In this document: positions 3,708-54,689 of the stretch, one piece after another | Numbering within the stretch: the first letter of the stretch is position 1 | Layout of the letters: every line of letters begins with the position of its first letter | NCBI GenBank assembly: GCA_965648905.1 | Contig: CBFGIT010000001.1 | Coordinates: 8,704-72,703, forward strand | Reading direction: 5' to 3' | Length of the DNA: 64,000 bases | DNA from: a candidate division WOR-3 bacterium | Lineage (GTDB): Bacteria > Hydrothermota > Tepidihabitantia > Tepidihabitantales > Tepidihabitantaceae | Notes under the pieces: model-generated | Told to the model about the DNA's origin: nothing | The model's input: only the letters and a program-made list of their open reading frames with translations | Databases searched by the model: none | Program-made: the position numbers and the translations under genes

Positions 3708-3913
3708 CGCGCTCCTGCCCGATGCCGGTAGAGAGACGGCTCTGGTCCTTCGATGGTCAAAGGCAATCGGCGGCCGGAAAACACGGCGTGATGATAGTCG
3801 GAAGCAGCCGGAAGTCAACCTGTTGGCAGTCGCCCCTTTCGCCTCTCGCTTCCTGCCCTTTGACTTACCTCGGCTTCAAGGTCGGTTTGACTTCGGAGCC
3901 GCGCCGGATATAG

Positions 3914-5437
3914 TTGACACCAATGACCACTAATCGGCCCGAACCAGCACCAGCCAGCGGCCATGACCGGGAAGTGCGGCTCGGCAAGCTCGGACGGCTG
4001 CGCGAGCAGGGTGTCAACCCCTATGCCTACCGGTATGACCGCACGCATTCATGCCAGGCGGTCATCGAACGATTTGCCGAGCTGGAGAACAGCGAAGTGC
4101 GGGTCGCGGGACGGCTGATGTCGCGCCGTGAGCATGGCAAGACCCAGTTCGGCCACATTCAGGATGCTTCAGGCCGGCTTCAGCTCTACCTGCGCCAGGA
4201 TACGCTCGGCGACGAAGCATTCTCCCGCCTCAACCTGCTCGACCTCGGCGACTTCGTCGGCGCCCAAGGCCAAGTATTCCGCACGCGGACCGGCGAGGTG
4301 ACGGTCAACGTCAAGGAACTGGTCTTGCTCGGCAAGTCTCTGCGGCCTTTGCCTGAGAAGTTCCACGGCCTGCGTGACATCGAAACCAGATACCGGCAGC
4401 GCCATGTTGACCTGCTGGTCAACGAAGAGTCGCGGCGCGTGCTGCTGGCGCGCAGCCGCATCGTCGGGCTGGTGCGGGAGTTTCTTACCGAGCGCGGTTT
4501 CATTGAGGTCGAAACACCGGTGCTTCAGCCCATCTACGGCGGTGCCGCGGCCCGGCCGTTCACCACTTACTACGACGTGCTTGAGCAGCAGATGTTTCTG
4601 CGCATCTCGGACGAGCTGTATCTGAAGCGGCTGATTGTCGGCGGACTGGAGAAGGTGTTTGAGATTGGTCGTGACTTCCGCAACGAGGGCCTGGACCGAA
4701 CCCACAACCCTGAGTTCACTCAGATGGAGCTGTACTGGGCCTTTGTTGACTACCACGACGTGATGAAGCTGACCGAAGAGCTGTTTGCCTTCCTGGCCGT
4801 GAAGCTGCACGGCCGGACCGAGGTCCGGTTCGGCAACCACATCGTTGACCTCGGTCGGTGGCGGCGCCTGAAGTTCGTTGACGCGCTGGCCGAGCGCATT
4901 GCGGCCGACCCGCTTGAGCTTTCCCTGCCGATGCTCAAGCAGGTTGCCGACCGGGCCGGCGTTGCAGCAGGCGAGGGCATCTCCCGGGCCAAGCTTCTGG
5001 ACAAGCTGTTCACCGAGCTGGTTCAGGACCGGATCGTCGAACCGACGTTCGTCATCGACCATCCCAAGGTCACGACGCCGTTGGCTAAGACCCACCGCGA
5101 CAATCCGAACCTAGTCGAGCGGTTCGAACCGGTGGTCTGCGGCATGGAGCTCGGCAACGCCTTCTCCGAACTCGCCGACCCGCTTGAGCAGCGGCAGCGG
5201 TTTGAAGAAGGCGTGGCGCAGAACGAGGAGTTTGCTACGGTCGACGAGGACTACTGCGAAGCACTCGAATTCGGCATGCCGCCGACCGGCGGGCTGGGCA
5301 TCGGCATCGACCGGCTGACCATGCTTCTGACCAACTCGCCCAACATCCGGGATGTGATTCTGTTTCCGCAGCTCCGGCCCAACCGGGATTCAAAGAATCA
5401 AGGAGACGAGGAGTTCTGCCCGGCTCCCGAACCCTAG
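3914..5437 (+). CDS. lysS: lysine--tRNA ligase (class II)
   Basis: 507-aa ORF with an N-terminal OB anticodon-binding domain and class II aaRS core motifs (FRNEG.., GGLGIGIDRL). Confidence 0.95.
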   Translation: MTPMTTNRPEPAPASGHDREVRLGKLGRLREQGVNPYAYRYDRTHSCQAVIERFAELENSEVRVAGRLMSRREHGKTQFGHIQDASGRLQLYLRQDTLGDEAFSRLNLLDLGDFVGAQGQVFRTRTGEVTVNVKELVLLGKSLRPLPEKFHGLRDIETRYRQRHVDLLVNEESRRVLLARSRIVGLVREFLTERGFIEVETPVLQPIYGGAAARPFTTYYDVLEQQMFLRISDELYLKRLIVGGLEKVFEIGRDFRNEGLDRTHNPEFTQMELYWAFVDYHDVMKLTEELFAFLAVKLHGRTEVRFGNHIVDLGRWRRLKFVDALAERIAADPLELSLPMLKQVADRAGVAAGEGISRAKLLDKLFTELVQDRIVEPTFVIDHPKVTTPLAKTHRDNPNLVERFEPVVCGMELGNAFSELADPLEQRQRFEEGVAQNEEFATVDEDYCEALEFGMPPTGGLGIGIDRLTMLLTNSPNIRDVILFPQLRPNRDSKNQGDEEFCPAPEP

Positions 5438-8903: not shown

Positions 8904-10285
8904 TGAATGATAAGGGCGTGATGTTTCGTTCCCTGCCTTCGGTCGACAGGTTGCTTGCCGATGCCCGGCTCGGCCCGGTCCTTGGCCGGGTGCACCGACG
9001 GATGGCGGTGCGGGCGGTAAGGGAGTATCTGGAGGAGGTGCGGGCCGACATCACTGCGGGACGAACTCGGGAGTTCTGTATCGAGGAACTGCGGGAGCGG
9101 CTTGAAGGCGAGATTCGGCCGACTCTGGTCCGTGCAATCAACGGCCTCGGTGTCATCCTGCACACCGGTCTCGGTCGGGTTCCTTTGTCGCGCGCAGCGC
9201 ATGAAGCGCTGGCCGATGCGGCCGAGCACTTCTGCTGTCTCGAGATTGACCGCACCACCGGTCGCCGCGGCAGCCGGTACCGGCACATCGAGCCTCTTCT
9301 CTGCGAGCTGACCGGCGCGGAAGCGGCCATGGTCGTGAACAACAACTGCGCGGCAACGCTCCTAATTCTCACCGGCCTGGCGCGCGGCCGGGAGGTTGTG
9401 GTCTCGCGCGGCCAGCTTATCGAAATCGGCGGTGCGTTCCGGATTCCGGAGGTGATGCTTCAGAGTGGTTGTCGAATGGTCGAGGTTGGCACGACCAACC
9501 GTACCCATCTGCGTGACTACCGCAGCGCCATTAGCGCCGATACGGCACTGCTGTTGCGCGTCCACACTTCGAACTACCGGATCACCGGTTTCACCAAAGA
9601 AGTCGGGCTTGACGAGTTGGTCGCGCTCGGGAAAGAGCACTCGATCCCGGTTGTCGACGACCTGGGCTCGGGCGCACTCATCGACCTTTCGAAGTACGGT
9701 CTGCCCAAGGAGCCGCTGGTACAGGAGTCGGTTGCGGCGGGCGCAGACCTGGTCTGCTTCTCCGGCGACAAACTCATCGGCGCATCCCAGGCCGGGATCA
9801 TTGTCGGCCGGAAGAAGTACGTTGACCTGCTCAAGAAACACCCATTGACCCGGGCCCTGCGCTGCGGCAAGCTCACCTATGCGGTACTTGAACGTACTCT
9901 CCTGCTTTTTCTCGACGAGGAGCAGGCCGTGAAGGAGCACGCTTTGTTCCAGTTGCTTCTGAAGCCGGTGGCGCAGTTGCAGACTGAGGCGACCGCACTG
10001 AAACGCCGGGTCGGCCCGGCCCTGGCTGGTAAGGCTGAACTGCGGGTCCGGCCGTGCCGGGCTGAAGTCGGCGGCGGTTCGCTTGCGACCGAGAGCCTTG
10101 AATCCCGTTGCCTGGCCCTGAAGCCAAGAGCCATTTCTGTGGACGAGCTTGCCCGCCGGATGCGGCGCAACCGCCCGCCGGTGTTCGGTCGGGTCGAGCA
10201 CGACGAATACCTGCTCGACTTTCGCACGATTCGCCGGGATGAAATCCCCTTGATCGCTCAAGCCCTGCTTGCCGCGCTGAGCTAG
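8900..10285 (+). CDS. selA: L-seryl-tRNA(Sec) selenium transferase SelA
   Basis: 461 aa with N-terminal LPSVDRLL and a PLP fold-type I core typical of SelA. ATGA overlap with mcsB. Confidence 0.9.
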   Translation: MMNDKGVMFRSLPSVDRLLADARLGPVLGRVHRRMAVRAVREYLEEVRADITAGRTREFCIEELRERLEGEIRPTLVRAINGLGVILHTGLGRVPLSRAAHEALADAAEHFCCLEIDRTTGRRGSRYRHIEPLLCELTGAEAAMVVNNNCAATLLILTGLARGREVVVSRGQLIEIGGAFRIPEVMLQSGCRMVEVGTTNRTHLRDYRSAISADTALLLRVHTSNYRITGFTKEVGLDELVALGKEHSIPVVDDLGSGALIDLSKYGLPKEPLVQESVAAGADLVCFSGDKLIGASQAGIIVGRKKYVDLLKKHPLTRALRCGKLTYAVLERTLLLFLDEEQAVKEHALFQLLLKPVAQLQTEATALKRRVGPALAGKAELRVRPCRAEVGGGSLATESLESRCLALKPRAISVDELARRMRRNRPPVFGRVEHDEYLLDFRTIRRDEIPLIAQALLAALS

Positions 10286-10304
10286 GGACCGACCGGCAGT
10301 CCGA

Positions 10305-11204
10305 ATGCTCCACCTTTCGGTTGACGTCGCTTCCCGGTCAGGCCGGGGCCTGCGCACTGCAGGCCCGCTGGTTGCTTTGGCCCTTGCAACCGCGGCCGCG
10401 GTCGCAAGTGTTTTCGGACTAGACGAGGTACAGAAGGTTGCTGGTTCCTGGTGGTTCGTTGCCGCCGCGTGTCTGTGCGGGCTGAGTGGTCTTGTCGGTG
10501 CGGTCAGACTGATTGGGCAGCGAAGACGGACGGCTGCGCTGTCACACTTCGGACTCGCACTCGGAATCGTCGGCATCCTTCTGAACCAGACCTTGAGTCG
10601 CGGCGGCTACCTGTTCCTGCCGGTTGGAGCCGGAGCACGGAACTACTGCCTAGCACAGAACCTGAAGGGGGTTGTTGAGCTGCCGTTCTCGGTTCGGCTC
10701 GACTCGCTCGGGGTGCGGACCAGCCGTGGCTTCAGACCTGCGCCCGCGGCACTTATCCGCGCCACGGCCGGCACGAAAGCTTTCGCCGCATCACTGACTT
10801 GGAACCATACCGTCACGGTCGATGGTTACCGGCTGGTGCTGTCCCGTGTCGTTGAGCAAGGGTTCCTTGAAGAGTACGAACTGGCGGTGGGCGAAGACGA
10901 ATACTCGCTCCTGCACAACCAGCGTGTCCGTCTCCGGCCCGGACTGGAAGTCACAAGCTTCGGCTTCGACGTCGAACACAAACAGGTCGGTCTGGTCGTG
11001 AACAATACCCGGCAGTGGCTTGCAGTCGGCGATTCGGCAGCGGTCGAAGGCGCACGTCTGCGACTGACTGCGGCATCTTTCGCACCAGCAGTTGGGGCGG
11101 TATTCGTCGCTAACGACGTCCGGCTGCGGCCGGTGCTGTTCATCGGCTTTGGTCTTGTGCTTCTGGGACTGCTGGGCGAGGCTCTTAGGAGAGCCGAACC
11201 GTGA
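10305..11204 (+). CDS. short ResB/CcsB-like cytochrome c biogenesis membrane protein (putative)
   Basis: 299-aa membrane protein whose stop overlaps the ccsA start (ATGA). It is called by position and topology only and is much shorter than canonical ResB. Confidence 0.4.
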   Translation: MLHLSVDVASRSGRGLRTAGPLVALALATAAAVASVFGLDEVQKVAGSWWFVAAACLCGLSGLVGAVRLIGQRRRTAALSHFGLALGIVGILLNQTLSRGGYLFLPVGAGARNYCLAQNLKGVVELPFSVRLDSLGVRTSRGFRPAPAALIRATAGTKAFAASLTWNHTVTVDGYRLVLSRVVEQGFLEEYELAVGEDEYSLLHNQRVRLRPGLEVTSFGFDVEHKQVGLVVNNTRQWLAVGDSAAVEGARLRLTAASFAPAVGAVFVANDVRLRPVLFIGFGLVLLGLLGEALRRAEP

Positions 11205-11994: not shown

Positions 11995-13455
11995 ATGACT
12001 ATCGCACAAGCCCTTGCGAACCTGGGCCGGCTCTATGACCGGCTGCTCGAACTCCGGGCTGACCGGAGTCTGTACCTTGTCGGCGGAACCATCCGCGACG
12101 TGCTCATGGGCCGGGAGCCGACCGACTTTGACTTTGCCGTGTCCGGGTCTGGGCTTGGGTTCGCTCGAGCCTTTGCCCGCAAGGCCCGTGGCCGACTGGT
12201 TGTCCTGTCTGAGCCGGATGACGAGGCACGCGTGGTCTGCCGCGAGGACCTGGTCTTTGACTTCACCGGGTTCGGCAATCTATCAATCGAGCACGATATC
12301 CGGCGCCGTGATTTTACGGTCAATGCCCTAGCCGCGGAGATTGACCACGGTCAGCCAGGCCCGATTATCGACCTCGTGCAGGGCCAGGATGATATCCGGG
12401 CACGTGTCATCCGGCCAGTGTCCGAAGACTCATTACGCCTGGACCCGCTGCGTCTCTTGAGAGCAATGCGCTTTGCCCTGGAGCTGGGCTTCGAGGTTGC
12501 CCCGGACGTATACGAGCAGGCACGCTCAGTTACCCTGCGCGAGACCGCGGCTGAGCGGATCGGGGCTGAGCTGCTGCGCATCATGGACCAGCCCGGTTCA
12601 TACCCGTTCATCCTGCGGCTTTTCGAGCTGGGCCGGCTGCAGGAGATTTTGCCCGAGCTTGGGCCGGTGTTCGACGACCCTGAGCTGCGCCACCATACGT
12701 TTCAGACCTGCTACAAGGTCGAGGAGCTCATCGCCCAGCCCGGATTCTTCGCCCGGTATGAGCCGGAGTGGGATGCATACTTTGGGCAGAAGGCAGAATG
12801 CAGAGTGCAGAATGCAGAGTGCAGAACGGCGGACGGCGCGGAGCGAGCAGCGAACAGTGAGCCTGTGCCTTATCGTCGCGCTCTGCTGAAGCTTGCCGGG
12901 CTGGTGCATGACATCGCCAAGCCTGAGACCCGGTTCACAAACACCGAAGGCGAGGTCCATTTCTATGGCCATGACAGCCTGGGCGCGAGGGTCGTCGGCC
13001 GCGTGGCACGCGAGCGCCTGCGCTTGTCCCGGGCCCAGACCACGATGCTCAAGACGCTCACTGCCGAGCACATGCGCCTGCACCTGCTTGCCACGACGCC
13101 TGACCTGACCGATCGTGCTGTTCGGCGTTACTTCCGTGATTTGGGCCCGGAAGCACTCGGCCTGATGATTCTCTGCGTGGCCGACGGCTGGGCGACCGCG
13201 GGTCGAACCTCGCATCTTGAGGATACCATCGCGCGGATGTTTGACCAGAAGCGGGCTGAGGACTCGGCCCGTCGCGTCCGGCGGCTGGTTACAGGCGACG
13301 ACCTGATTGAGCTTGGACTCAAGCCCGGCCCGGCGTTCAAGGTGATTCTGCAGGAGCTTGAGGACCTGCAGGTTGAAGGCCGGATTACGTCGAAAGAGCA
13401 GGGAATCGAGTATCTGAAAACCCACCTGACCGGCCTGGCCCGGACTGACTCATAG
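11995..13455 (+). CDS. cca: CCA-adding tRNA nucleotidyltransferase / poly(A) polymerase family protein with HD domain
   Basis: PolyA_pol head (GGTIRDVLMGREPTDFDFAV) and HD motif (HDIAKPET). Internal ATG at 11995 chosen; the upstream ORF part would overlap ccsA. Contains heptad repeat 12793-12862 in-frame. Confidence 0.8.
   Translation: MTIAQALANLGRLYDRLLELRADRSLYLVGGTIRDVLMGREPTDFDFAVSGSGLGFARAFARKARGRLVVLSEPDDEARVVCREDLVFDFTGFGNLSIEHDIRRRDFTVNALAAEIDHGQPGPIIDLVQGQDDIRARVIRPVSEDSLRLDPLRLLRAMRFALELGFEVAPDVYEQARSVTLRETAAERIGAELLRIMDQPGSYPFILRLFELGRLQEILPELGPVFDDPELRHHTFQTCYKVEELIAQPGFFARYEPEWDAYFGQKAECRVQNAECRTADGAERAANSEPVPYRRALLKLAGLVHDIAKPETRFTNTEGEVHFYGHDSLGARVVGRVARERLRLSRAQTTMLKTLTAEHMRLHLLATTPDLTDRAVRRYFRDLGPEALGLMILCVADGWATAGRTSHLEDTIARMFDQKRAEDSARRVRRLVTGDDLIELGLKPGPAFKVILQELEDLQVEGRITSKEQGIEYLKTHLTGLARTDS
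12793..12862 (+). repeat. heptad repeat tract (GCAGAAT/GCAGAGT)x5 degenerating into AGCGAAC-type heptads, inside cca
   Basis: 10 consecutive 7-nt units, translated in-frame as AECRVQNAECRTADGAERAANSE. Confidence 0.9.
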
Positions 13456-13463
13456 CGCAGGAC

Positions 13464-14423
13464 ATGACTCCGTCTTTCGTCTACGGCCCGGTTCCCAGCC
13501 GCCGTCTCGGTCTTTCCCTAGGCATCAATATCATCCCCCACAAGACCTGCACTCTCGACTGCGTCTACTGCCAGTGCGGCCGCACCACGGACAAGGCCGT
13601 GCAGAGAAGGTCTTTCTTTCCGGTTGATGAAGTTGTCGCCCAGGTGCGCGCCGCGGTCAAGCGTTCGCGGCCGTCATACCTTACTTTCTCCGGTGAAGGC
13701 GAGCCGACGCTCAACAAGGACATCGGTCGAATCATCCGCCGGCTCAAGGCCGAGACGAGCATTCCGGTCGCGGTGATAACCAACTCGACCCTCCTGACCG
13801 ATCCGGTGGTCCGGCGCGACCTGTCCGCGGCTGACCTGGTCGTGCCGTCGCTCGACGCTGCCGACCAGCGCGTATTCTCTTGGATTGACCGGGGCCGCCG
13901 GGAACTCGCGGTGAGTGATATCATCGACGGTCTGGTTCGGTTCCGACGGCACTTTCGTGGTCAGATGTGGCTTGAGATTATGCTTGTCAAGGACGTGAAC
14001 GATTCGGTCGAGCATCTGATGAAGCTCCGGCTTGCTGCGGAGCGGATCCGGCCTGACCGGGTGCACCTGAACACGGTTGTCCGGCCGCCGGCCGAAAAGT
14101 GGGCCCGGCCGCTTACCCGGGACGACCTTGAACAGGTTCAGATGCTTTTCGGACCGGGTGCAGAGGTCGTTGCGTCCTCGGTCCCGGTCAGGTCCAGGAC
14201 ACTCTCTGGCGACCCGGCACCGGCGCTGGTCGCGCTTGTCTCATCACGGCCGGTGACCGAGGAGGATGTTGTGCGCGCCCTGAGGCTTGAGCCGGGCCGG
14301 GCGCGTCAGGCCCTTGCCCGCCTGGTCGCCCAAGGTCGAATCCGGCGCGTTCGGTTCCAGGGCAAGGTCTACTTCGAGAAGCCGCAGGCGAAAGGCGAGA
14401 GGCGAACGGCGAATGGCGAATAG
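13464..14423 (+). CDS. radical SAM protein (CxxxCxxC) with C-terminal winged-helix-like tail
   Basis: CTLDCVYC cluster motif and GEGEPTL glycine-rich SAM motif. Its C-terminus is encoded by heptad repeat 14387-14442. Confidence 0.7.
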   Translation: MTPSFVYGPVPSRRLGLSLGINIIPHKTCTLDCVYCQCGRTTDKAVQRRSFFPVDEVVAQVRAAVKRSRPSYLTFSGEGEPTLNKDIGRIIRRLKAETSIPVAVITNSTLLTDPVVRRDLSAADLVVPSLDAADQRVFSWIDRGRRELAVSDIIDGLVRFRRHFRGQMWLEIMLVKDVNDSVEHLMKLRLAAERIRPDRVHLNTVVRPPAEKWARPLTRDDLEQVQMLFGPGAEVVASSVPVRSRTLSGDPAPALVALVSSRPVTEEDVVRALRLEPGRARQALARLVAQGRIRRVRFQGKVYFEKPQAKGERRTANGE

Positions 14424-14442
14424 CGAACGGCGAACGGCGAGC
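14387..14442 (+). repeat. heptad repeat (GGCGAAN)x8 spanning the radical-SAM stop codon and the start codon of the downstream lipoprotein gene
   Basis: ggcgaaa ggcgaga ggcgaac ggcgaat ggcgaat agcgaac ggcgaac ggcgagc; ATG 14413 and TAG 14421-14423 both lie within it. Confidence 0.9.
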
Positions 14443-16293
14443 TTGGTTGGAGTCCTGGCCTTTGCGGTCGGGCTCGTCTGCTGTGCTCGAAATGACCGGT
14501 TGGAAAGCAGGAGCGGAGAGAAGGAAAGGCCGCTCGTCTATCCTCGAGTGTTGTTTCTGACCACCGGCTCTGATGGTGCTGGCACACTGCCGTCAGGAGC
14601 CAATATCTGTCTTGAGACATTCAGCAGCCTGGGCGCGATTGTTGAAATCGCCGACAAGACGGTACTGCTCGACTCGGCCCGGCTCGCGTCAGCCCGCATC
14701 ATTGTCGCGCCGACCATTGCCGGGTATCACGATGCGGACCGGACCTTCTCGCTTTCGTTCCTGGACGACGCATCGATGAGGAATCTTGCCGCCTGGGTTG
14801 AGGCCGGCGGCATCCTCATCGCCGGCGAGAATGTCGGCCGGAACACAATCGAGGGCGAGGACCGGGTGACGTCCGGGGGAATCCTTGATGGCGAGGAGTG
14901 GCCGCTGGCCCGGGTCTTCGGCTATTCACTGGCAGAGACTAACCTCAAGGGGTTCTGGATGGTCAAGGACTCTGCTGCCCTGCTGCTTGCCGGCTTCCGT
15001 ACCGAGCTGGCGCCGGTCCTGCCCGAAGCGTGGCTGCTCGTGCCGGTCGACTCGACCGTGGCCAGCGGCGTCCAGGTGCTTTCTTACTGGGTGCGCGACC
15101 GCACGCGTCATCCGGCCATCACTCTGAATCGCTGCGGCCGCGGCTGGGGCATCCTGGTGCCGCTCTTTCTTCTGCTTCAGCCCGCCTTTGACGGCGGGGC
15201 CGGCGACGTGCCGGCCATCGCCGAGTTCTACGCCCGCGTCTTTGCGCTGGCGTTCGACGGACCAGCGGTCTACGTCAACCCATGGCCGGGCGCGCATCGA
15301 AGTGCTCTGGCCGTAACCCTGAATGAAGCCGAGGTCGCCGATTCGATTGCCGAACTGAAGCTGCGGACAACGCTTTCCCGCTTGCTCGCCGCGCCGGGCG
15401 TGGCTCGGCTTGATGTTTTCGTCACCGGGCTGCTGCCCGATTCGGTTGTCGCCCGGCTGAAGAAGGAACCGAAGGTGAAGCTGGCGAGTCTCAGTTACAG
15501 CCATCGATTTTTCACCGAACTCGACTTCTGCCGCACGATGTGGGAAATCGTCCGACTCGAAGACCGCCTGCGCCTGCCCTTGACCGGGTTTCGTTTCCCG
15601 TTCAGCCGCCGCACCCCGGCCGGGCTGTTCAGCCTGGCCCGGCGGGGTTACCGGTACGAGTCGTCGGTGTATATCAATCATGTTTCGGGACTTGCCGGTG
15701 CGCTGTTTCCCTACAATCTGCCGGTCTGGGTCAAGGGCCAGTACTGCCTGGTTACCGACATGCTCGAGCTTTCGCCGACGATTGAGGACTGGGACTTCTA
15801 CGGCGCAGGGGTTGCTTCGACGGTCTACGGCGATTCGGCCCAGGCCCGTGATGCGCGCCGGTTCGCGGCCCGGCTTGAATCCCACTGGCAGAGCCTCGTG
15901 CGTGCCCGGCGCGGAATGATGATCCTGACCCTGCACTCGGCGTACAGCGGGCACTCGGGAATAACCCTCGCACCGGTGACAGATTTCCTGGCCGCTGCGG
16001 CCCGGGCCGGAGACGTCTGGCTTGCCGGCATGGACGACATCGCCAACTGGTGGAACGCCCGGCGTAACGTCGAGATCAGAGTGACCAGCTCAAACCAGAA
16101 GACCGTACTCAGGTTCGCCAACAATAATCCTGAGCCGGTGCGCAATCTCGCGGTTCGACTGACCGAGCCCGGTCTGAACATCCAGACCCGGGGTACGGTG
16201 GTCAGCCGCGTTGAGCGCACCGAAGAAGATGGGACCTTCACCTATCTTGTCTTCGACCTGGACAAGACCGCTGAACTGGAGGTTACAAGATGA
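14413..16293 (+). CDS. hypothetical lipoprotein/secreted protein (possible polysaccharide-modifying, CE4-like?) of EPS locus
   Basis: ATG at 14413 lies inside the heptad repeat and is followed by the signal/lipobox-like LAFAVGLVCCA. 626 aa with no confident domain call from sequence alone. Confidence 0.55.
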   Translation: MANSERRTASLVGVLAFAVGLVCCARNDRLESRSGEKERPLVYPRVLFLTTGSDGAGTLPSGANICLETFSSLGAIVEIADKTVLLDSARLASARIIVAPTIAGYHDADRTFSLSFLDDASMRNLAAWVEAGGILIAGENVGRNTIEGEDRVTSGGILDGEEWPLARVFGYSLAETNLKGFWMVKDSAALLLAGFRTELAPVLPEAWLLVPVDSTVASGVQVLSYWVRDRTRHPAITLNRCGRGWGILVPLFLLLQPAFDGGAGDVPAIAEFYARVFALAFDGPAVYVNPWPGAHRSALAVTLNEAEVADSIAELKLRTTLSRLLAAPGVARLDVFVTGLLPDSVVARLKKEPKVKLASLSYSHRFFTELDFCRTMWEIVRLEDRLRLPLTGFRFPFSRRTPAGLFSLARRGYRYESSVYINHVSGLAGALFPYNLPVWVKGQYCLVTDMLELSPTIEDWDFYGAGVASTVYGDSAQARDARRFAARLESHWQSLVRARRGMMILTLHSAYSGHSGITLAPVTDFLAAAARAGDVWLAGMDDIANWWNARRNVEIRVTSSNQKTVLRFANNNPEPVRNLAVRLTEPGLNIQTRGTVVSRVERTEEDGTFTYLVFDLDKTAELEVTR

Positions 16294-16937
16294 AAGCGAT
16301 GCCACTTGTCTGTGCCGGCCTGGCTGCGCTGCTGGCTGGTTGTGCCGACCTGACCTACGACGCGACCGCGCCGACCGTCACGATTGTCTACCCGGTATCG
16401 TGGTCGACATTTGCCCGCGAGACTATCGAAATCCGGGCCGACGCTTACGACAACGTTGAACTTGACCGGGTTGTGTTCCATGTCGACGGTGAGTCGGCAG
16501 GCTCGGTCCAGACCAAGCCTTACCACCTGCGCTGGTACCCGGACACAACCGGGGGGCATTCGATTCACTGCGTGGCATACGACGCCGCGGGCAACGAAGC
16601 TCACTCCAGCCCGGTCGTAGTGACGATTACCTCCAGCGAGCCGCCGCCTGACCTGGAGCCGCCGTACGTCGCCCTGGTACGGCCCGCATCCTGGTCCGTG
16701 GTGCAGGAGACGGTGAGGATTGAGGCGATTGCCGGGGACAACCGGGGAGTACGCCGGGTCGTTTTCTTCCTCGACGGCGATACGCTGGCCGTGCCGGGTG
16801 GCCCGCCGTGGGTTCATTATTGGGACAGCCGCTCGGTCGGGAATGGCTACCATACCATCTACGCCGCGGCCGCAGACAGCTCGGGCAATCTCGGCTACTC
16901 GGCCGTGCTCACGGTCGACGTGCGCAACGCGCCGTGA
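16290..16937 (+). CDS. lipoprotein with two tandem Ig-like (Big-type) domains
   Basis: Signal + lipobox LLAGCAD followed by two ~100-aa internal repeats (VTIVYPVSWSTF.. / YVALVRPASWSVV..). Confidence 0.6.
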   Translation: MKAMPLVCAGLAALLAGCADLTYDATAPTVTIVYPVSWSTFARETIEIRADAYDNVELDRVVFHVDGESAGSVQTKPYHLRWYPDTTGGHSIHCVAYDAAGNEAHSSPVVVTITSSEPPPDLEPPYVALVRPASWSVVQETVRIEAIAGDNRGVRRVVFFLDGDTLAVPGGPPWVHYWDSRSVGNGYHTIYAAAADSSGNLGYSAVLTVDVRNAP

Positions 16938-16965: not shown

Positions 16966-18420
16966 TTGACACTGCTCTGGCTGGCAGTTGACATCCTTGC
17001 CGTCTACTTCGGCTTGGACGTGGTCATCAACCTGATATTCCTTGCCGTATTTCTGGTCGTCTTCCGCCGCGGTCGGATCAGCCGGCAGCAGTCCGGCCAG
17101 ACGCCCGGCGTGGCGATTCTCGTGCCGGCGTACAACGAAAGTGCGACCGTGGCCGAGAGTGTCCGTTCGCTCCTGGCGCTCGACTACCCTGAGTTCGAGG
17201 TGATTGTCATCAACGACGGCTCGGTCGACGCGACGCTCGAGGCGGTCAAAGACGCGTTCCGGCTGCAGCCCGACAATCGGGAATATCTGGACCTGCTCGG
17301 CACCGTGCCGGTGCGGGGTATCTACCGGTCACGCGTCGACCCGCGGCTGCTAGTCGTGGATAAACCCAACTCGGGCAAGGCCGACTCGCTCAACGTCGGG
17401 CTTGCTCTTACCGACATGCCGCTGGTCGTCACAATCGACTCCGATTCGCTGCTCGCGCCATCGGCCCTCGGTCGGCTGGCCGGGCTGTTTCTTGAGCGCA
17501 ATGCCGCTGCTGCGGGCGGGCTCATTACCGCGGCCAACGAGGTCCGGGTCGAGCAGGGCCGGGTTGTTGCCAGTTGCCTGCCGCGCCGTGGGCTGGTGAT
17601 GTTCCAGCTCGTCGAGTATCTTGTTTCCTACACGGTCGGCCGCATCGCGTTTTCCTCGGTCAACGCCTTGATGGTTCTGTCCGGTGCGTTCACGATGTTT
17701 GACCGAAGGCTGCTGCTTGAGTGCGGCGGTTTTCTGACCCGGCACAACCGGCATCCCTATGTCGCGGGGGTCACCGGCGGCCGGTCGGTCGGCACGGTCT
17801 GCGAGGACATGGAGGTAATCGTACGCCTGCACCGGTACGTCCGCGAGCAGAAGCTCCGGCGCCCGATCGTCTTTGACCCATGGCCGGTGGCCTGGACCGA
17901 GGTTCCTTCGACCGTACGTCAGCTTGCTCGGCAGCGCAATCGCTGGCAGCGCGGCCTGCTTGAGTCACTCGCTCTCCATCGGCAGATGTGGTTTGAGCCT
18001 GGTTATGGCACAGCCGGACTGATCGGCATCCCCTACCAGCTCGTCTTCGTTGCCCTTTCTCCTGTCCTGCAGGTGCTCGGCACCGGACTTCTGGTCTGGC
18101 TGCTTGCCGTGCGGCAGGCCAGTGCTCTGTGGCTGGCCGGTGCGCTGGGCGCGACCGCGCTCGCAGGCGGAGCCATCACCGCCATGGTCACGACTGCGGT
18201 GGAGCGACGGTTTGCCCGCGACTCGGCGGTGAATGTCCAGGCGATGCGTTATCACACGTTCGGCGACTGGCTCCGGCTTGTCGGATTTGCCGTTATCAGC
18301 GGCCCGGTGTACGGGCCGCTCAGAACTGCTTTTCAGCTCTGGGGCACATGGGACTGGATTGTTGGCCAGAAGTCGTGGTACAAGTTCGAACGCACCGGTT
18401 TTAGCCAGGCCAAGCCATGA
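16966..18420 (+). CDS. processive family-2 glycosyltransferase (PgaC/cellulose-synthase-like exopolysaccharide synthase)
   Basis: GT2 motifs ILVPAYNE, VINDGS, D..D and Q(R)xRW (RQRNRWQRG), plus N- and C-terminal TM helices. The start codon (TTG 16966) is uncertain. Confidence 0.85.
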   Translation: MTLLWLAVDILAVYFGLDVVINLIFLAVFLVVFRRGRISRQQSGQTPGVAILVPAYNESATVAESVRSLLALDYPEFEVIVINDGSVDATLEAVKDAFRLQPDNREYLDLLGTVPVRGIYRSRVDPRLLVVDKPNSGKADSLNVGLALTDMPLVVTIDSDSLLAPSALGRLAGLFLERNAAAAGGLITAANEVRVEQGRVVASCLPRRGLVMFQLVEYLVSYTVGRIAFSSVNALMVLSGAFTMFDRRLLLECGGFLTRHNRHPYVAGVTGGRSVGTVCEDMEVIVRLHRYVREQKLRRPIVFDPWPVAWTEVPSTVRQLARQRNRWQRGLLESLALHRQMWFEPGYGTAGLIGIPYQLVFVALSPVLQVLGTGLLVWLLAVRQASALWLAGALGATALAGGAITAMVTTAVERRFARDSAVNVQAMRYHTFGDWLRLVGFAVISGPVYGPLRTAFQLWGTWDWIVGQKSWYKFERTGFSQAKP

Positions 18421-19919
18421 CCGCACTGCTGCTTGCTCTCATCGCCGCGCCCATCACCGTGGCCGAGGTCCACGAACTGGTGGAGGCGGGTCGCGCCGCC
18501 GAGGCCTTGCCCCGGGCCGAGTCGGCCGCACAGGCCGCGCCCGACGACCGACCAATTCAGAAGGCTTTCGCGCTCATCCTCCGTAACATCGGCGAGCTCG
18601 ACTCCGCGGTTCGAGTGTACGACCGGCTGCTGGCATCTGACTCGTCCGACGACGATACGCGCCTCGGCAAGGCGCTGGCCGTCTCATGGCAGGGCCGGCT
18701 GGCCGAGGCGCTCGCAATTTACGAAGAAATCCGGCCCGGCACCGAGCACTACTTTGATGCCGTAGTCGGCAAAGGCCGCGTCACCGGCTGGATGGGACGA
18801 TACCGCGAGGCCCTGCGCTGGTTCAAGGTGGCCGACTCGATTCTTCCCGGCAACCGCGAGGTACTCGAACGCCGGGCCCAAGTGACCGGTTGGTCCGGCG
18901 ACCACGGTCGCGCCATCCAGCTATACCAGCAATTGCACAGCCTCGACCCGGACAACGCCGACTACGTCCTCGCCTTGGGGCAGAACCATGAGTGGTCAGG
19001 CCTGGCCGTGACTGCGCAGAGTTATTACCGGCAGGCGGCGAGACTCGCGCCCGGCCGCAAGGATGTGCACGAGGCGCTCGGCCGGGTTGAGGAGGCGGCA
19101 GCCTGGCGGGCATCGCTCACCTGCGTTGACGCCGCGGACTTTGACGGCGACGTGCAGGGGCGATACCGTGAGTACCGGCTCCGGTTGGAGCCGCGGTTCG
19201 GCGACCGGTTCCGACCAAGCGGCAGCGCGTCGTGGTCAGGCAACCGGCGCGGAACGCTGGGCCGCAACTATCTTTTCTGCCGGGCCGGGCTCTCGTTTCA
19301 GCCACTCTCTTGGCTCGAACTCGCCGGGCAGGTGCAGGGCGACGCGTTCACGTTCGCCTTCAAAACCGCGACGGTGCGCTGGGAAGCCGAGCGCGGGCGG
19401 CTGACGTGGTCGGGCGACCTTGGGCGCGTGCTGTACGAACCGGCCCAGAACATCGGCGCACTCACCGGCTCTACCCAACTAGCACTCCGGCCAGGTGCGG
19501 GCTTCAGGCTCTCCGGCCGTGCCGTTCGGACCCACATCATCGACGACGGCAACGGGAAGAACGCGCTCTTCGCATGCGCCGGGTACGATGTTCTGTCCAG
19601 ACCGCGGGTGGGAGTACAGTACACCCTGAGCTACGATGACTTCCGCGTCCGGTCCCCGCGCTACTACTCCCCTCAGAACCTCGTCACTCACCAGGTCGGT
19701 GTTGTCTTCTCCGCACGCCGGGGCGGCACAGGCCTATCGGCGGATGCGGCCGGCGGCGTGAATACGGTCGGCGAATGGGTGGCCCGCGCCAACGCCGCCC
19801 TGGACCAGCGCATCCTGCCCAGGACCAGTCTGTCGCTTGAGATTGACTATGCCCAGACCATGGTACGCGGTCGGTACCTGTACGCAAGCGTCGCGGTCGG
19901 GCTCTCCCGTTCACTCTAA
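18417..19919 (+). CDS. TPR-repeat + predicted beta-barrel outer-membrane protein (PgaA-like exporter/scaffold)
   Basis: The N-terminal half has TPR-like helical repeats. The C-terminal half has alternating hydrophobic beta-strand patterning. ATGA overlap with the GT2 gene. Confidence 0.55.
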   Translation: MTALLLALIAAPITVAEVHELVEAGRAAEALPRAESAAQAAPDDRPIQKAFALILRNIGELDSAVRVYDRLLASDSSDDDTRLGKALAVSWQGRLAEALAIYEEIRPGTEHYFDAVVGKGRVTGWMGRYREALRWFKVADSILPGNREVLERRAQVTGWSGDHGRAIQLYQQLHSLDPDNADYVLALGQNHEWSGLAVTAQSYYRQAARLAPGRKDVHEALGRVEEAAAWRASLTCVDAADFDGDVQGRYREYRLRLEPRFGDRFRPSGSASWSGNRRGTLGRNYLFCRAGLSFQPLSWLELAGQVQGDAFTFAFKTATVRWEAERGRLTWSGDLGRVLYEPAQNIGALTGSTQLALRPGAGFRLSGRAVRTHIIDDGNGKNALFACAGYDVLSRPRVGVQYTLSYDDFRVRSPRYYSPQNLVTHQVGVVFSARRGGTGLSADAAGGVNTVGEWVARANAALDQRILPRTSLSLEIDYAQTMVRGRYLYASVAVGLSRSL

Positions 19920-19920
19920 G

Positions 19921-22900
19921 ATGCACGGCAAGTACCTGGTCATCGCACTGCTTCTGGCCGTGCTGGCCGTGCTGGTCGTCGGCCTGACCCGGCTCGAACA
20001 GCGCCGGTCTCGGCCCGTGGTCGTGATAGCAGCCCAGCCACCACCGCCCCCCTTCGAAATCACCGCGACCCGCGAGGAACTTGCGGCCCGGGCCGCTCAG
20101 GCAAAGGTCTTGTTCCGGTGCGCGGGCGACGAATTTGAGCACCTGACGACTGCGAGCAGCCTGCGCGGCGAGAAGCGTGAGGCCTGGCAGAAGTTCTTCG
20201 CGGCCGGCGTCAACCTTGGCGTTGCCCTGCCCGGCCACTATCCGACCGAGTTCGGCGCCACGTTTGAAGACTACTCCCGCTGGCTGTGCCAGATGGGCGA
20301 CGTGAGGCTGAACGTCCTCCGCACCTACACCATTCTGCCGCCTGAGTTCTACCAAGCGCTGGCACAATACAATTTCAACCATTCGGACCGGCCGGTATAC
20401 CTTATCCAGGGTGTCTGGGCTGAGCCCCCGGCGTCGGGTAATCTCTTCGAGCCGGGATACACCGATTCACTCAAACGGGAGATATGCAACGCTGTGGATG
20501 TCGTCTTCGGCCGTGCGGTTCTGCCCGAGCGGGCAGGCCATGCCCACGGCGCGTATTCGGCCGATGTGTCGGCGTTCACCCTCGGTTTTCTCTTCGGTCG
20601 CGAGTGGGAGAGTGAAGTGGTCCGGCATACTGATACCGTCAATGCGACGGTTCGCCGCTACGAAGGGCGCTTCATCGGCATGCCGGTCGGCAGTCCGACC
20701 GAGGTCTGGCTTGCCGGCATGATGGACTACCTGACAAGCTACGAGGTGCTCACCTGCTCGACCATGCATCCGGTTGCGTTCGTCACCTGGTTGCCGCTCG
20801 ACCCGCTCCACCATTCGACCGAGTACACGAGTCGCGGGCGCCCCGGTGACCACGACAACGACCTGGTCGTCCTCGACCCGATGCACATCCAGACCACACC
20901 GGCGATGCGGGCCGGGGTCTACGCCGCCTACCATGTCTACCCCTACTACCCGGACTACATCTTTCTCGAACCGGCCTATCGCAACTACCGCAACCGCCAC
21001 GGCGAGCCCGACAACTATGCCGGGTACCTGCATTACCTGAAGCAGCACCATGCCGGCATGCCGCTGGTCGTCGCCGAGTACGGCGTACCCTCGGCGCGCG
21101 GCAACTCACACCACAGCGGCCTAGGCATGGATCACGGCGGCCACAACGAGGAAGAACAGGGACAACTCAATCTGAGGATGCTTACCGCCATCTATGACGA
21201 AGGCCTGGCCGGCGGCATCGCGTTTTCCTGGCTCGACGAATGGTTCAAGCGCAACTGGCTGGTCGACGATTTCGCGGTTCCGGCCGACCGGGTCCGGCTC
21301 TGGCACAACGTCCAGAACCCGGAGCAGTGCTTCGGTATGGTGAAGTTCGGTCGTGAGCTCGTTGCCCTCGACGGCCGGACCGACGACTGGCACGGCCGAC
21401 CGTACGCCCGGAGTGACGCGACCCTGCTGCGCGCCCTGTGGCTTCAGGCCGACGAAGAATATCTCTATCTCCGGCTCGACCTGAAACGGTCCCCGGACTG
21501 GTCGCACCAGCGGGTCGGCATCGCCATCGACACCTACGACCCGCGCCTCGGCAACACCCGGCTCGGACCGGTCGGCCTCGAGTGCACCAACGGCACTGAG
21601 TTCCTCGTGCTGCTCGACGACACGAACCGGGCCCAGGTGCTGGTCGACAGCGCCTACTCCCTTTTCTCTGACCCGACCTCGCCGGTCGAGCCGCGCTACC
21701 GCACGCTGGCCGGCAACGACGGCAGCTTCATCACCCAGCAACTGATGAACAACCATCCCCGGTTCACCGCCACCGGTGAGACAGTCCCGGCACAGGTGAC
21801 CGAGTATGGCCGGCTGGTCTTTGGCCGCTCGGCCGACAACTCCCTTGCTGACTGGTACGAGCGGTATGGAATCATCGAACTGCGCCTGCCCTGGGGAGTG
21901 CTGTCCGTTTCCGACCCCTCGTCGTTTCAGGTCATCCAGAATGATACCCTGACCCCGGGCATTGAGAGTGCGACCACCAATGGTTTCGCCTTCTCGGCGT
22001 TCATCATGCACGATACGACCACCGGCGCTACTGGGCTCGTTTCATCTCTGCCGGCCGCGACCGGAGCCCGACTCGGCTTTACCCGTCGCTGGCGCTGGTC
22101 CGGCTGGGAGATGCCGCGGTGTGTCGAAAGATTGAAGCAGGGCTATCATGTGTTTGCCGCCGGGCTGGCAGGGATTACGGCCGACTCTGCTCTGCGGCGG
22201 ACAAGCCTCGACCGCCTTGCCGGCATCAGCACCAAAGGCATCGTGGCGCGCATCGCCCGGTTTCGCGACGATGCGCCGCTCGCGGTTTCCCTTACTTTTG
22301 ACGACGGCTCCTATGACCTCTTCACCAACGCGCTTCCGTTCCTTTCGGTCTACGGATTCAAGGCGAACTTCGGGCTCGTGTCCGACTGGACCGGGCCTGA
22401 CGCCGACTGGCACACGGAAAAGAATGGCACCTCGTTCAAGCGCTTGGGAATACCTGAGGTCAAAGCGCTCCTGGCTGATGGCCACCGCGTGTCGGCCCAC
22501 GGCGTGTCGCACGAGCCCGACGAGATGAGCGGCAACGCGGCCGAAGTACTCGATGTCGTGCGCTCATCCAAGGCCGCGCTGGAGCAGGCACTCGGCACGC
22601 CGGTGAGAAGCTTTCACTACCCCTACAGCGTGGTTCGGCCCGAGAACCTGGCCGCAGTGCGCCGCAGCGGGTTCTGGTTCGGCCGCACCGCCGGCGACCG
22701 GCATAACATTCCGGCCAGCTTCGACCGATTCCTGCTCACGAGCTTTGCGTTCTACAACGACACCCTGCCCGACCTGGCCGGGCTCGTCCGTATCCTCGAA
22801 CAGGGCCGCGGTCAATGGACGGTCATGCTCCACCATCATGTCCTCGACTCGACTGCGCCCGAGCTTGCGACCATGGCCCGGCACGGCGTGATTCATACTT

Positions 22901-23232
22901 ACTCGGTCACGCCGCTGACCTTCGGCCGGCAGATGCGACTTGTCCGCAACAGCGGCGCCTGGGTTGGTCCGCTTGAGGAAGTGGGCCGCTACCTGCTCCA
23001 GTACCGAAAGGCACGGCTCGACCTGCGCCAGTCACCGCAGTCGGCCACGCTGCGCATCGACGCTGCGGCCCGAGACCTGCCGCCGGTACCAATGACGGTC
23101 GTACTCGAGATTCCGTGGCACTGGGTCCGGGTCACGGGTTCGTTGGCTGACGGCACCTATTCGCCCTATGCGGGCCGGTTGTCGCTCGATGTCCTGCCCG
23201 GCAAGGATGTGAATCTGAGCCGCGCCGACTAG
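19921..23232 (+). CDS. membrane-anchored bifunctional glycoside hydrolase-like / NodB-type polysaccharide deacetylase (CE4) protein (PgaB/PelA-like)
   Basis: N-terminal TM anchor (MHGKYLVIALLLAVLAVLVV), a central glycosidase-like region and a C-terminal CE4 motif region (SLTFDDG.., HGVSHEP). The internal ATG chosen lies 1 nt after the upstream stop. Confidence 0.7.
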   Translation: MHGKYLVIALLLAVLAVLVVGLTRLEQRRSRPVVVIAAQPPPPPFEITATREELAARAAQAKVLFRCAGDEFEHLTTASSLRGEKREAWQKFFAAGVNLGVALPGHYPTEFGATFEDYSRWLCQMGDVRLNVLRTYTILPPEFYQALAQYNFNHSDRPVYLIQGVWAEPPASGNLFEPGYTDSLKREICNAVDVVFGRAVLPERAGHAHGAYSADVSAFTLGFLFGREWESEVVRHTDTVNATVRRYEGRFIGMPVGSPTEVWLAGMMDYLTSYEVLTCSTMHPVAFVTWLPLDPLHHSTEYTSRGRPGDHDNDLVVLDPMHIQTTPAMRAGVYAAYHVYPYYPDYIFLEPAYRNYRNRHGEPDNYAGYLHYLKQHHAGMPLVVAEYGVPSARGNSHHSGLGMDHGGHNEEEQGQLNLRMLTAIYDEGLAGGIAFSWLDEWFKRNWLVDDFAVPADRVRLWHNVQNPEQCFGMVKFGRELVALDGRTDDWHGRPYARSDATLLRALWLQADEEYLYLRLDLKRSPDWSHQRVGIAIDTYDPRLGNTRLGPVGLECTNGTEFLVLLDDTNRAQVLVDSAYSLFSDPTSPVEPRYRTLAGNDGSFITQQLMNNHPRFTATGETVPAQVTEYGRLVFGRSADNSLADWYERYGIIELRLPWGVLSVSDPSSFQVIQNDTLTPGIESATTNGFAFSAFIMHDTTTGATGLVSSLPAATGARLGFTRRWRWSGWEMPRCVERLKQGYHVFAAGLAGITADSALRRTSLDRLAGISTKGIVARIARFRDDAPLAVSLTFDDGSYDLFTNALPFLSVYGFKANFGLVSDWTGPDADWHTEKNGTSFKRLGIPEVKALLADGHRVSAHGVSHEPDEMSGNAAEVLDVVRSSKAALEQALGTPVRSFHYPYSVVRPENLAAVRRSGFWFGRTAGDRHNIPASFDRFLLTSFAFYNDTLPDLAGLVRILEQGRGQWTVMLHHHVLDSTAPELATMARHGVIHTYSVTPLTFGRQMRLVRNSGAWVGPLEEVGRYLLQYRKARLDLRQSPQSATLRIDAAARDLPPVPMTVVLEIPWHWVRVTGSLADGTYSPYAGRLSLDVLPGKDVNLSRAD

Positions 23233-54605: not shown

Positions 54606-54689
54606 GGTGCCTCCTGGATTATTGCTCTGGACCGGGTGAAGTAATCCTACCGGGCATACCATGAAGTGTCAAAATCGGCCGGGCCGATG

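Follow-up and report, generated by a model that had tools for sequence, protein, structure and literature searches.

The heptamer array and the genes that meet in it

The DNA analysed here is a 64-kb stretch (the window) from a candidate division WOR-3 bacterium (assembly GCA_965648905.1, contig CBFGIT010000001.1, nt 8,704 – 72,703). At nt 14387 – 14442 it carries a tandem array of eight imperfect heptamers, GGCGAAN, in which a radical-SAM gene (nt 13464 – 14423, 319 aa) ends and a gene for a probable lipoprotein (nt 14413 – 16293, 626 aa) begins. Coordinates are those of the window, and features lie on the forward strand unless stated otherwise. The units read, in order, GGCGAAA, GGCGAGA, GGCGAAC, GGCGAAT, GGCGAAT, AGCGAAC, GGCGAAC and GGCGAGC, and encode both the C-terminal tail of the radical-SAM protein and the n-region of the lipoprotein signal peptide. 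The TAG stop codon of the upstream gene (nt 14421 – 14423) takes its T from unit 5 and its AG from unit 6, the first base of which has changed from G to A. The ATG of the downstream gene (nt 14413 – 14415) forms where the AAT of unit 4 meets the G of unit 5. It sits 8 nt ahead of the TAG, so that the two open reading frames (ORFs) overlap by 11 nt.

By Tandem Repeats Finder (TRF) the array was fitted to nt 14386 – 14440 with a period of 7, 7.9 copies and 85% matches, with alternative fits at periods of 14 and 21. Its period-7 self-matches (41 of 49) are the maximum for the whole window, the best of 30 shuffles reaching 29, and the two-unit pattern GGCGAANGGCGAA, allowing up to one mismatch, occurs nine times in the window, seven of them inside the array, against an expectation of 0.86. 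The tandem organisation is thus far above chance, as in other heptanucleotide simple sequence repeats (SSRs). Conservation is fair at six positions of the unit, the seventh varying freely. The longest perfect period-7 stretch is 18 nt (nt 14423 – 14440), or 2.6 units, and the next longest 14 nt. The GG tracts, set apart by 5-nt loops, were considered as a conceivable two-tetrad G-quadruplex. A pattern scan of the window and of 89 comparison loci (loci of relatives and other phyla bear L numbers below) found no further GGCGAAN array. An earlier note on this DNA had proposed that the array spans both the TAG and the ATG and encodes the peptides KGERRTANGE (end of the radical-SAM protein) and MANSERRTAS (beginning of the lipoprotein); both statements are confirmed. 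The two termini are alike, both carrying the periodic peptide (G/S)ERRTA(N/S) (GERRTAN and SERRTAS), because 7 = 1 mod 3; a one-base frame shift is equivalent to moving one unit along the array.

The radical-SAM protein has a PF04055 domain (E = 3.5e-20) and a winged-helix-like C-terminal region; the label COG0731/TYW1-like comes from one source. Candidate division WOR-3 contributes the overwhelming majority of its homologues, which usually end in ...GK(V/T)FYEPA after a core of about 305 – 308 aa. The protein of the window continues for about 14 residues (KPQAKGERRTANGE) beyond this end, and the last 11 – 12 of these, together with the TAG, are derived from the array. The 626-aa protein has the signal peptide MANSERRTASLVGVLAFAVGLVCC, with Cys codons at nt 14479 – 14484. 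No Pfam or NCBIfam family could be assigned to it. Among its 39 homologues, those with a labelled source belong to WOR-3 or to unclassified metagenome-assembled genomes (MAGs), and the family shows a variable N-terminal signal peptide with Cys followed by a conserved mature start, LVYPRVLFLTTG. Remote members carry polysaccharide-deacetylase (PF01522) or GH42M-like (PF08532) domains, and comparison with PDB gave a weak match to a polysaccharide deacetylase.

Downstream lie genes for a Big_7 protein (nt 16290 – 16937), a PgaC/IcaA-like synthase of glycosyltransferase family 2 (GT2; nt 16966 – 18420), a TPR protein (nt 18417 – 19919) and a protein of 1131 aa with a polysaccharide-deacetylase domain (nt 19837 – 23232). 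Since Big_7, GT2, TPR and deacetylase-domain genes follow the array, the label of exopolysaccharide (EPS) locus given in the earlier note is a fair one for this poly-N-acetylglucosamine (PNAG)-like gene set, which is headed by the 626-aa gene.

Reading frame, start codon and relatives

The position at which one coding frame gives way to the other could be located by comparison with a sister genome, GCA_039801345.1 (L001), in which the radical-SAM protein and the lipoprotein are 90% and 89% identical, respectively, to those of the window. Substitutions between the two were tallied by codon position. Within the 240 nt 5' of the array, third positions of the radical-SAM frame take 17 of 23 substitutions, and the ratio of synonymous to non-synonymous changes is 15:8 in that frame vs 2:21 in the lipoprotein frame. 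Within the 300 nt 3' of the array, 38 of 56 substitutions fall in third positions of the lipoprotein frame. Coding constraint changes its reading frame within the array.

This has a direct bearing on the start of the lipoprotein gene. A long version starting at TTG 14287 is excluded by the frame change, as it is only in the radical-SAM frame that substitutions 5' of the array are synonymous. A start at TTG 14443, immediately after the array, is less likely, since it would drop the Arg-rich n-region present in homologues. The ATG at nt 14413 fits the frame change, is also the start called in L001, and yields an n-region with Arg, as in the homologues. The frame test, the sister genome and the homologues therefore all support a start within the array rather than at a later ATG outside it. 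Ten nt 5' of this ATG, in units 2/3, is the sequence GAGAGG (nt 14397 – 14402), which may be a Shine-Dalgarno-like element; it is absent in L001. Scans for sigma-70 promoters and terminators returned nothing at the junction, no Rfam family matched the array, and no stable RNA fold was found there. Folding of an 81-nt region gave z = +1.34, with 186 of 200 shuffles folding at least as well and a fully open centroid. The geometry would suit a coupled gene pair, with a same-strand start adjacent to a stop and no promoter-like or terminator-like site between them.

The junction is kept in L001, including the 11-nt ATG...TAG overlap, both codons, both ORFs and the 626-aa product. The array in that genome is shorter by exactly 21 nt (three units). 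It consists of two 21-nt superunits that are 95% alike, which yields two in-frame ATGs, and unit positions 1 and 5 are among those that vary. Repeat number at this junction is therefore not fixed, and units and their presence also vary between relatives at orthologous sites. The consequences of other changes in unit number were simulated. Loss of one unit or gain of two 5' of the ATG would yield a fusion of the radical-SAM protein with the lipoprotein frame (940 or 947 aa), and gain of one or loss of two a longer radical-SAM protein of 367 or 360 aa; none of these changes disrupts the lipoprotein ORF. Changes of one or two units 3' of the ATG would truncate the lipoprotein to 22 – 53 aa. Both ORFs survive a gain of three units, be it 5' or 3' of the ATG, and a difference of minus three units is what separates L001 from the window, again with both ORFs intact. 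The mechanics described in the earlier note, by which unit slippage alters the radical-SAM C-terminus or the downstream frame, thus hold in silico for changes of one or two units.

Relatives closer than L001 were not present in the protein and contig collections searched. A scan of a genome collection with the radical-SAM alignment gave 80 loci, the window's own genome and that of L001 not being among them; a metagenome scan for close strains with the 626-aa protein gave only four loci, at 62 – 73% identity and none with the junction; and an exact-sequence look-up of the window's radical-SAM protein returned no record of further strains. In L002 and L010 (76% identity) the radical-SAM gene ends in a tail, AAQVQGQGRKRPTARHQ, which together with its DNA is recognisably homologous to the array, though decayed, and the gene that follows is unrelated to the 626-aa gene. 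In L004 and L005 (78% identity) the radical-SAM protein ends soon past its core. The 626-aa gene of L006 – L009 and L090 (lipoprotein 62 – 73% identical) has an intergenic leader of its own and no array; at L090, the one locus where the upstream neighbour was examined, this neighbour is a different gene. The next-closest lipoprotein homologue, P0123 (71%), likewise has its own leader without an array, next to a divergent upstream gene. Adjacency of the radical-SAM and 626-aa genes is, among the relatives compared, confined to the sub-lineage of the window and L001. As judged from these sequences, the array-derived tail would be older than the adjacency, which is suggested by its occurrence in a 76%-identity relative that has no neighbouring EPS locus.

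The leaders of some of these relatives have a feature of their own. Upstream of the 626-aa start at L006 (about nt 2900 – 3000), L009 (about nt 2880 – 2990) and L090 (about nt 870 – 907) there is a conserved promoter-like motif, CTGGACACAGGCA...TA(A/G)GATAT.TTATCCC; the motif of the L006 and L009 leaders is absent from the window.

Period-7 arrays in the WOR-3 clade

Heptamer arrays are rife in one clade of candidate division WOR-3, that of the window. A census by TRF of the window and the 89 loci, counting arrays of at least three copies, found 61 period-7 arrays in WOR-3 loci (428 kb), compared to ten of period 6 and at most nine of any other period. Sequence near the radical-SAM gene is over-represented in this sample of about 0.4 Mb. 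Loci of other phyla (807 kb) gave 20 period-7 arrays, concentrated in few loci. Period 7 is therefore over-represented among the tandem repeats of the lineage, where more than 30 different heptamer units occur at many sites. Several WOR-3 loci of similar G+C content are without any arrays; the arrays are clade-specific rather than GC-specific.

Array positions were classified by ORF calling, a codon-usage score of the 180-nt flanks being too noisy for the purpose (known coding sequence was scored as non-coding). ORFs contain 37 of the 63 arrays classified; the remainder divide equally between gene ends or junctions (13) and intergenic sequence (13). Those within ORFs cluster at 32 – 38 nt (21/37), and the intergenic ones spread broadly from 22 to 46 nt. 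Two further arrays of the window are of the in-frame kind. One (nt 12786 – 12826; 5.9 copies of GCAGAAT/GCAGAGT) belongs to the gene of the CCA-adding/HD enzyme, where it encodes AECRVQNAECRTA within a variable loop; L001 differs there from the window by in-frame indels. The other, a perfect (CAATCTG)4.6 at nt 74 – 105, lies inside pdxA. No ORF was broken at an array in any assembly compared.

The radical-SAM gene itself is a recurrent target. Eight species share inserts at two internal sites, and the family's spread in length (305 – 357 aa) follows from these. At site 1 the insert is +21 nt in 8/8; at site 2 it is +9 nt in six species and +18 nt in two. The heptamer is species-specific, every copy having changed together, at site 1 (CGCAACT, TCGTCAA or TCGTCCC) and, in most species, at site 2 (AAGGACN, AAAGTCC or AAATCAC), where two species have no clear array. 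The arrays of site 1 are at L013 nt 3677 – 3712, L016 nt 3344 – 3379, L020 nt 3224 – 3259, L021 nt 10187 – 10222, L026 nt 4343 – 4373, L011 nt 3718 – 3754 and L015 nt 3157 – 3184. Those of site 2 are at L020 nt 3763 – 3797, L021 nt 10726 – 10760, L026 nt 4885 – 4919, L015 nt 3701 – 3734, L011 nt 4260 – 4284 and L025 nt 3794 – 3820. The pattern indicates concerted evolution of the heptamers, with length held in frame.

Several further arrangements were seen in the same clade. The loop of the CCA-adding/HD enzyme gathers compound arrays (L020 nt 2065 – 2246, L025 nt 2212 – 2297, L026 nt 3349 – 3473, and nt 12786 – 12826 of the window), four successive arrays of different units in L020 making the protein about 55 aa longer. 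Other gene junctions are also built of heptamers. In L001 an array of 9 – 12 copies forms the junction between SelA and the next gene (nt 1822 – 1914), and CTCATAA x5.4 (nt 4998 – 5035) contains both the stop of the CCA-adding enzyme gene and the start of the radical-SAM gene, so that the two genes overlap by 11 nt and the radical-SAM protein is longer by 8 aa at its N-terminus. In L004 and L005, CGGTGAG x5.4 (nt 351 – 388) holds the McsB stop and the SelA start. In L020 (nt 2065 – 4155 of 13994) and L021 (nt 9943 – 11078 of 20966) the arrays occur only within about 2 kb around the CCA-adding enzyme and radical-SAM genes, despite 10 – 20 kb of flanking genes having been read; this confinement may be a matter of sampling.

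A near-perfect cassette of 32 – 33 nt, (GCAATCT)~4.6, recurs at non-homologous sites of different WOR-3 genomes: at nt 74 – 105 of the window, L020 nt 2125 – 2156, L015 nt 2306 – 2338, L021 nt 9969 – 10001 and L026 nt 4135 – 4167. It lies inside pdxA, in the CCA-adding enzyme loop or at the 5' end of the radical-SAM gene. The radical-SAM ATG of L026 is composed of the AAT that ends the cassette and a G.

Outside WOR-3, several heptamer arrays were found at L054 (nt 3748 – 4001 and 19475 – 19529), L034, L064 and L080, the array-bearing groups being Ignavibacteriota, Clostridia, a deltaproteobacterium and Planctomycetota. As only few loci of other phyla carry arrays, the phenomenon appears patchy across phyla, in line with the literature on heptameric repeats.

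Origin of the array and competing explanations

The array is probably a heptanucleotide SSR that has been recruited as coding sequence and as a gene overlap, and whose surviving length changes are limited to multiples of three bases (21 nt here), rather than a tuned switch for EPS; this is held with moderate confidence. The GGCGAAN array would be an older, interrupted example of such SSRs, expanded at the 3' end of the radical-SAM gene. In one frame it adds a short charged tail and the TAG to the radical-SAM protein, and one base over it provides the first gene of the PNAG-like locus with an ATG and with a signal-peptide n-region rich in Arg. The lipoprotein gene was probably placed beside the radical-SAM gene by a rearrangement only in the sub-lineage of the window and L001, the units being recruited thereafter. 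The length of the array would still change by replication slippage or unequal exchange, and selection on both frames would let pass only multiples of three bases, here changes of 21 nt (three units). As its units are interrupted, the array would seldom slip by a single unit, and such slips would amount to loss-of-function or fusion mutations. The 11-nt ATG...TAG overlap, without a detectable promoter or terminator, suggests that the lipoprotein gene is co-transcribed with, and translationally coupled to, the radical-SAM gene.

Several points weigh against this interpretation. The 21-nt step at this locus is seen in one close relative (n = 1), and consensus MAG sequences cannot reveal minority out-of-frame alleles within a population. 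Perfect arrays elsewhere, together with concerted evolution, imply a high level of ongoing slippage, so that single-unit variants may be more frequent than would be expected of an imperfect array. Gene geometry is the only basis for co-transcription and translational coupling. Lastly, recurrence of (GCAATCT)~4.6 at non-homologous sites is not explained by simple local slippage from chance seeds. One clade of WOR-3 might own a heptamer-specific expansion process beyond ordinary slippage, one that placed arrays of about five units into coding loops, termini and junctions, re-homogenised them in frame, and reused cassettes such as (GCAATCT)~4.6 at unrelated sites, thereby creating new tails, starts, overlaps and perhaps gene juxtapositions. 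Under such a process, ON/OFF or fusion variants of the lipoprotein might still arise at low frequency from the GGCGAAN array. A process of this kind is considered unlikely.

The earlier note had proposed that the array is a phase-variation switch for EPS. As an adaptive contingency locus, it would undergo frequent, reversible one-unit slips that give EPS-ON and EPS-OFF subpopulations, slips 3' of the ATG silencing the first EPS gene and slips 5' of it fusing or extending the radical-SAM protein and altering the coupling. Exactly such effects followed from simulated changes of one or two units, which toggle the frame; copy number differs between the two closest genomes; and array turnover is active in the clade, where several arrays are perfect. 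The target, a surface-polysaccharide locus, belongs to a classic phase-variable gene class, and phase variation by way of heptanucleotide repeats is known from Haemophilus influenzae (PMC2651432). The tracts of that organism, however, reach 13 – 38 identical copies and have out-of-frame alleles among strains (PMC2651432), while the longest perfect tract here is 2.6 units, no out-of-frame allele occurs in any of the assemblies, and the sole variant observed is an in-frame difference of three units that keeps the ATG, the TAG and both ORFs. Equivalent arrays are found in pdxA, in the CCA-adding enzyme gene and within the radical-SAM gene, where switching would be harmful, and a decayed array tail persists in a relative without an adjacent EPS locus. 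The repeats do not favour surface over housekeeping genes in the sample of about 0.4 Mb, and since period-7 arrays are abundant across the clade, housekeeping genes and junctions included, the one at the EPS locus is not special. With imperfect units, an in-frame variant only, lineage-wide arrays and a decayed tail elsewhere, the proposal found no positive support, and an adaptive switch is considered quite improbable.

Selection might alternatively have favoured the array as an element of translation initiation or coupling, in which an unstructured, purine-rich and non-self-complementary leader with the Shine-Dalgarno-like GAGAGG would promote reinitiation after the radical-SAM stop. The junction region folds less well than most shuffles, the ATG...TAG overlap is kept in L001, there is no promoter-like site between the genes, and heptamer repeats just 5' of starts have been proposed as translational regulators in Beggiatoaceae (PMC4679880). 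As the folding z-score is weak, GAGAGG is absent in L001, and arrays of unrelated units occur inside genes, where initiation is not needed, this role also appears unlikely. A protein-binding operator or RNA-binding platform is very improbable. In that case a regulator binding the heptads cooperatively, or cold-shock-type proteins at one per heptamer, would control the EPS operon. The omega repressor of Inc18 plasmids binds arrays of 7-bp heptads, and the eight contiguous heptads seen here, with six of seven positions fairly conserved, do head an operon. Binding of CspB to heptamer repeats has also been discussed (PMC4679880). Yet GGCGAAN occurs nowhere else in the window or the 89 loci, the array is part of coding sequence and has no promoter near it, variation in L001 extends to unit positions 1 and 5, and more than 30 heptamer units at many sites of the clade cannot all be operators. 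That the array is an artefact of assembly or sequencing is hardly credible. Short repeats are prone to mis-assembly and the source is a MAG, but an independent assembly (GCA_039801345.1) has an equal junction with an equal ATG/TAG core, both ORFs are intact, the substitutions by codon position are those of real coding sequence, the 56-nt array is shorter than a read, and arrays are present at orthologous positions in many independent studies.

If the array is a recruited SSR, as preferred here, it has parallels among known repeats. Heptameric repeats are over-represented in bacteria, and polymerase slippage has been proposed as the cause (PMC4679880, PMC4692102). Long heptanucleotide SSRs of prokaryotes, in the work of Mrazek et al. 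(2007) as summarised in PMC4679880 and PMC4692102, include cyanobacterial repeats, GGGAATC of Xanthomonas and GGGGAYT of Nostoc. The WOR-3 arrays resemble these in their head-to-tail 7-nt units, the over-representation of period 7, the variation of length and sequence between close relatives, the recurrence of some units at many sites, and a proposed origin by polymerase slippage. Unlike the published cases (Xanthomonas, Nostoc, Beggiatoaceae), which are mainly intergenic, 37/63 of the WOR-3 arrays are in frame within ORFs and some form gene boundaries, contributing stops, starts and signal-peptide residues; a mainly intergenic location is a trait of the published cases and no defining property of an SSR. 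No description of heptamer repeats in WOR-3 was found in the literature searched.

TAACTGA direct repeats occur in marine Beggiatoaceae and in some Cyanobacteria and Bacteroidetes (PMC4679880). They share with the present arrays a suggested role in translation, and their mechanism of dispersal is unknown (PMC4679880). In that system one heptamer dominates genome-wide, whereas the WOR-3 clade has many different units, and TAACTGA, with stop codons in forward orientation, is mostly non-coding, in contrast to GGCGAAN, which is read as protein in two frames. The hmw1A/hmw2A and TonB-dependent receptor tracts of H. influenzae (PMC2651432) are similar in having a 7-nt unit at the 5' end of a surface-related gene, where a change in unit number shifts frame or expression; they differ in copy number and identity of the units, the window having eight interrupted ones and an in-frame variant only.

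Overlapping stop/start junctions with translational coupling are well known in bacterial operons. The junction in the window is comparable, with an ATG 8 nt before the upstream stop, an 11-nt overlap, and neither promoter nor terminator between the genes. It departs from usual operon overlaps in consisting wholly of repeat units and having probably arisen after a recent gene juxtaposition, and the coupling here is suggested by geometry.

For the annotation of this uncultured lineage, these results remove a tempting, unsupported label, that of a phase-variable EPS locus. They also provide a case in which, following gene rearrangement, a microsatellite appears to have been recruited to supply one gene with its stop codon and the next with its start codon and the charged n-region of its signal peptide. 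More generally, the WOR-3 clade offers a natural example of non-triplet (7-nt) repeats that are common inside essential genes and whose units evolve in concert; every length difference that has survived is a multiple of three bases (21 nt at the junction and at site 1 of the radical-SAM gene). It may be useful in asking why period 7 is favoured in bacteria, how low-complexity protein insertions arise from repeats, and how gene callers deal with starts and stops inside repeats.

Elsewhere in the window, a 312-nt tandem duplication (nt 51625 – 52201; 1.8 copies, 92% alike) lies inside an ORF of 1662 aa on the reverse strand (nt 49674 – 54662), near the 3' end of which is a weak AATGACG x4.1 array (nt 49771 – 49799).

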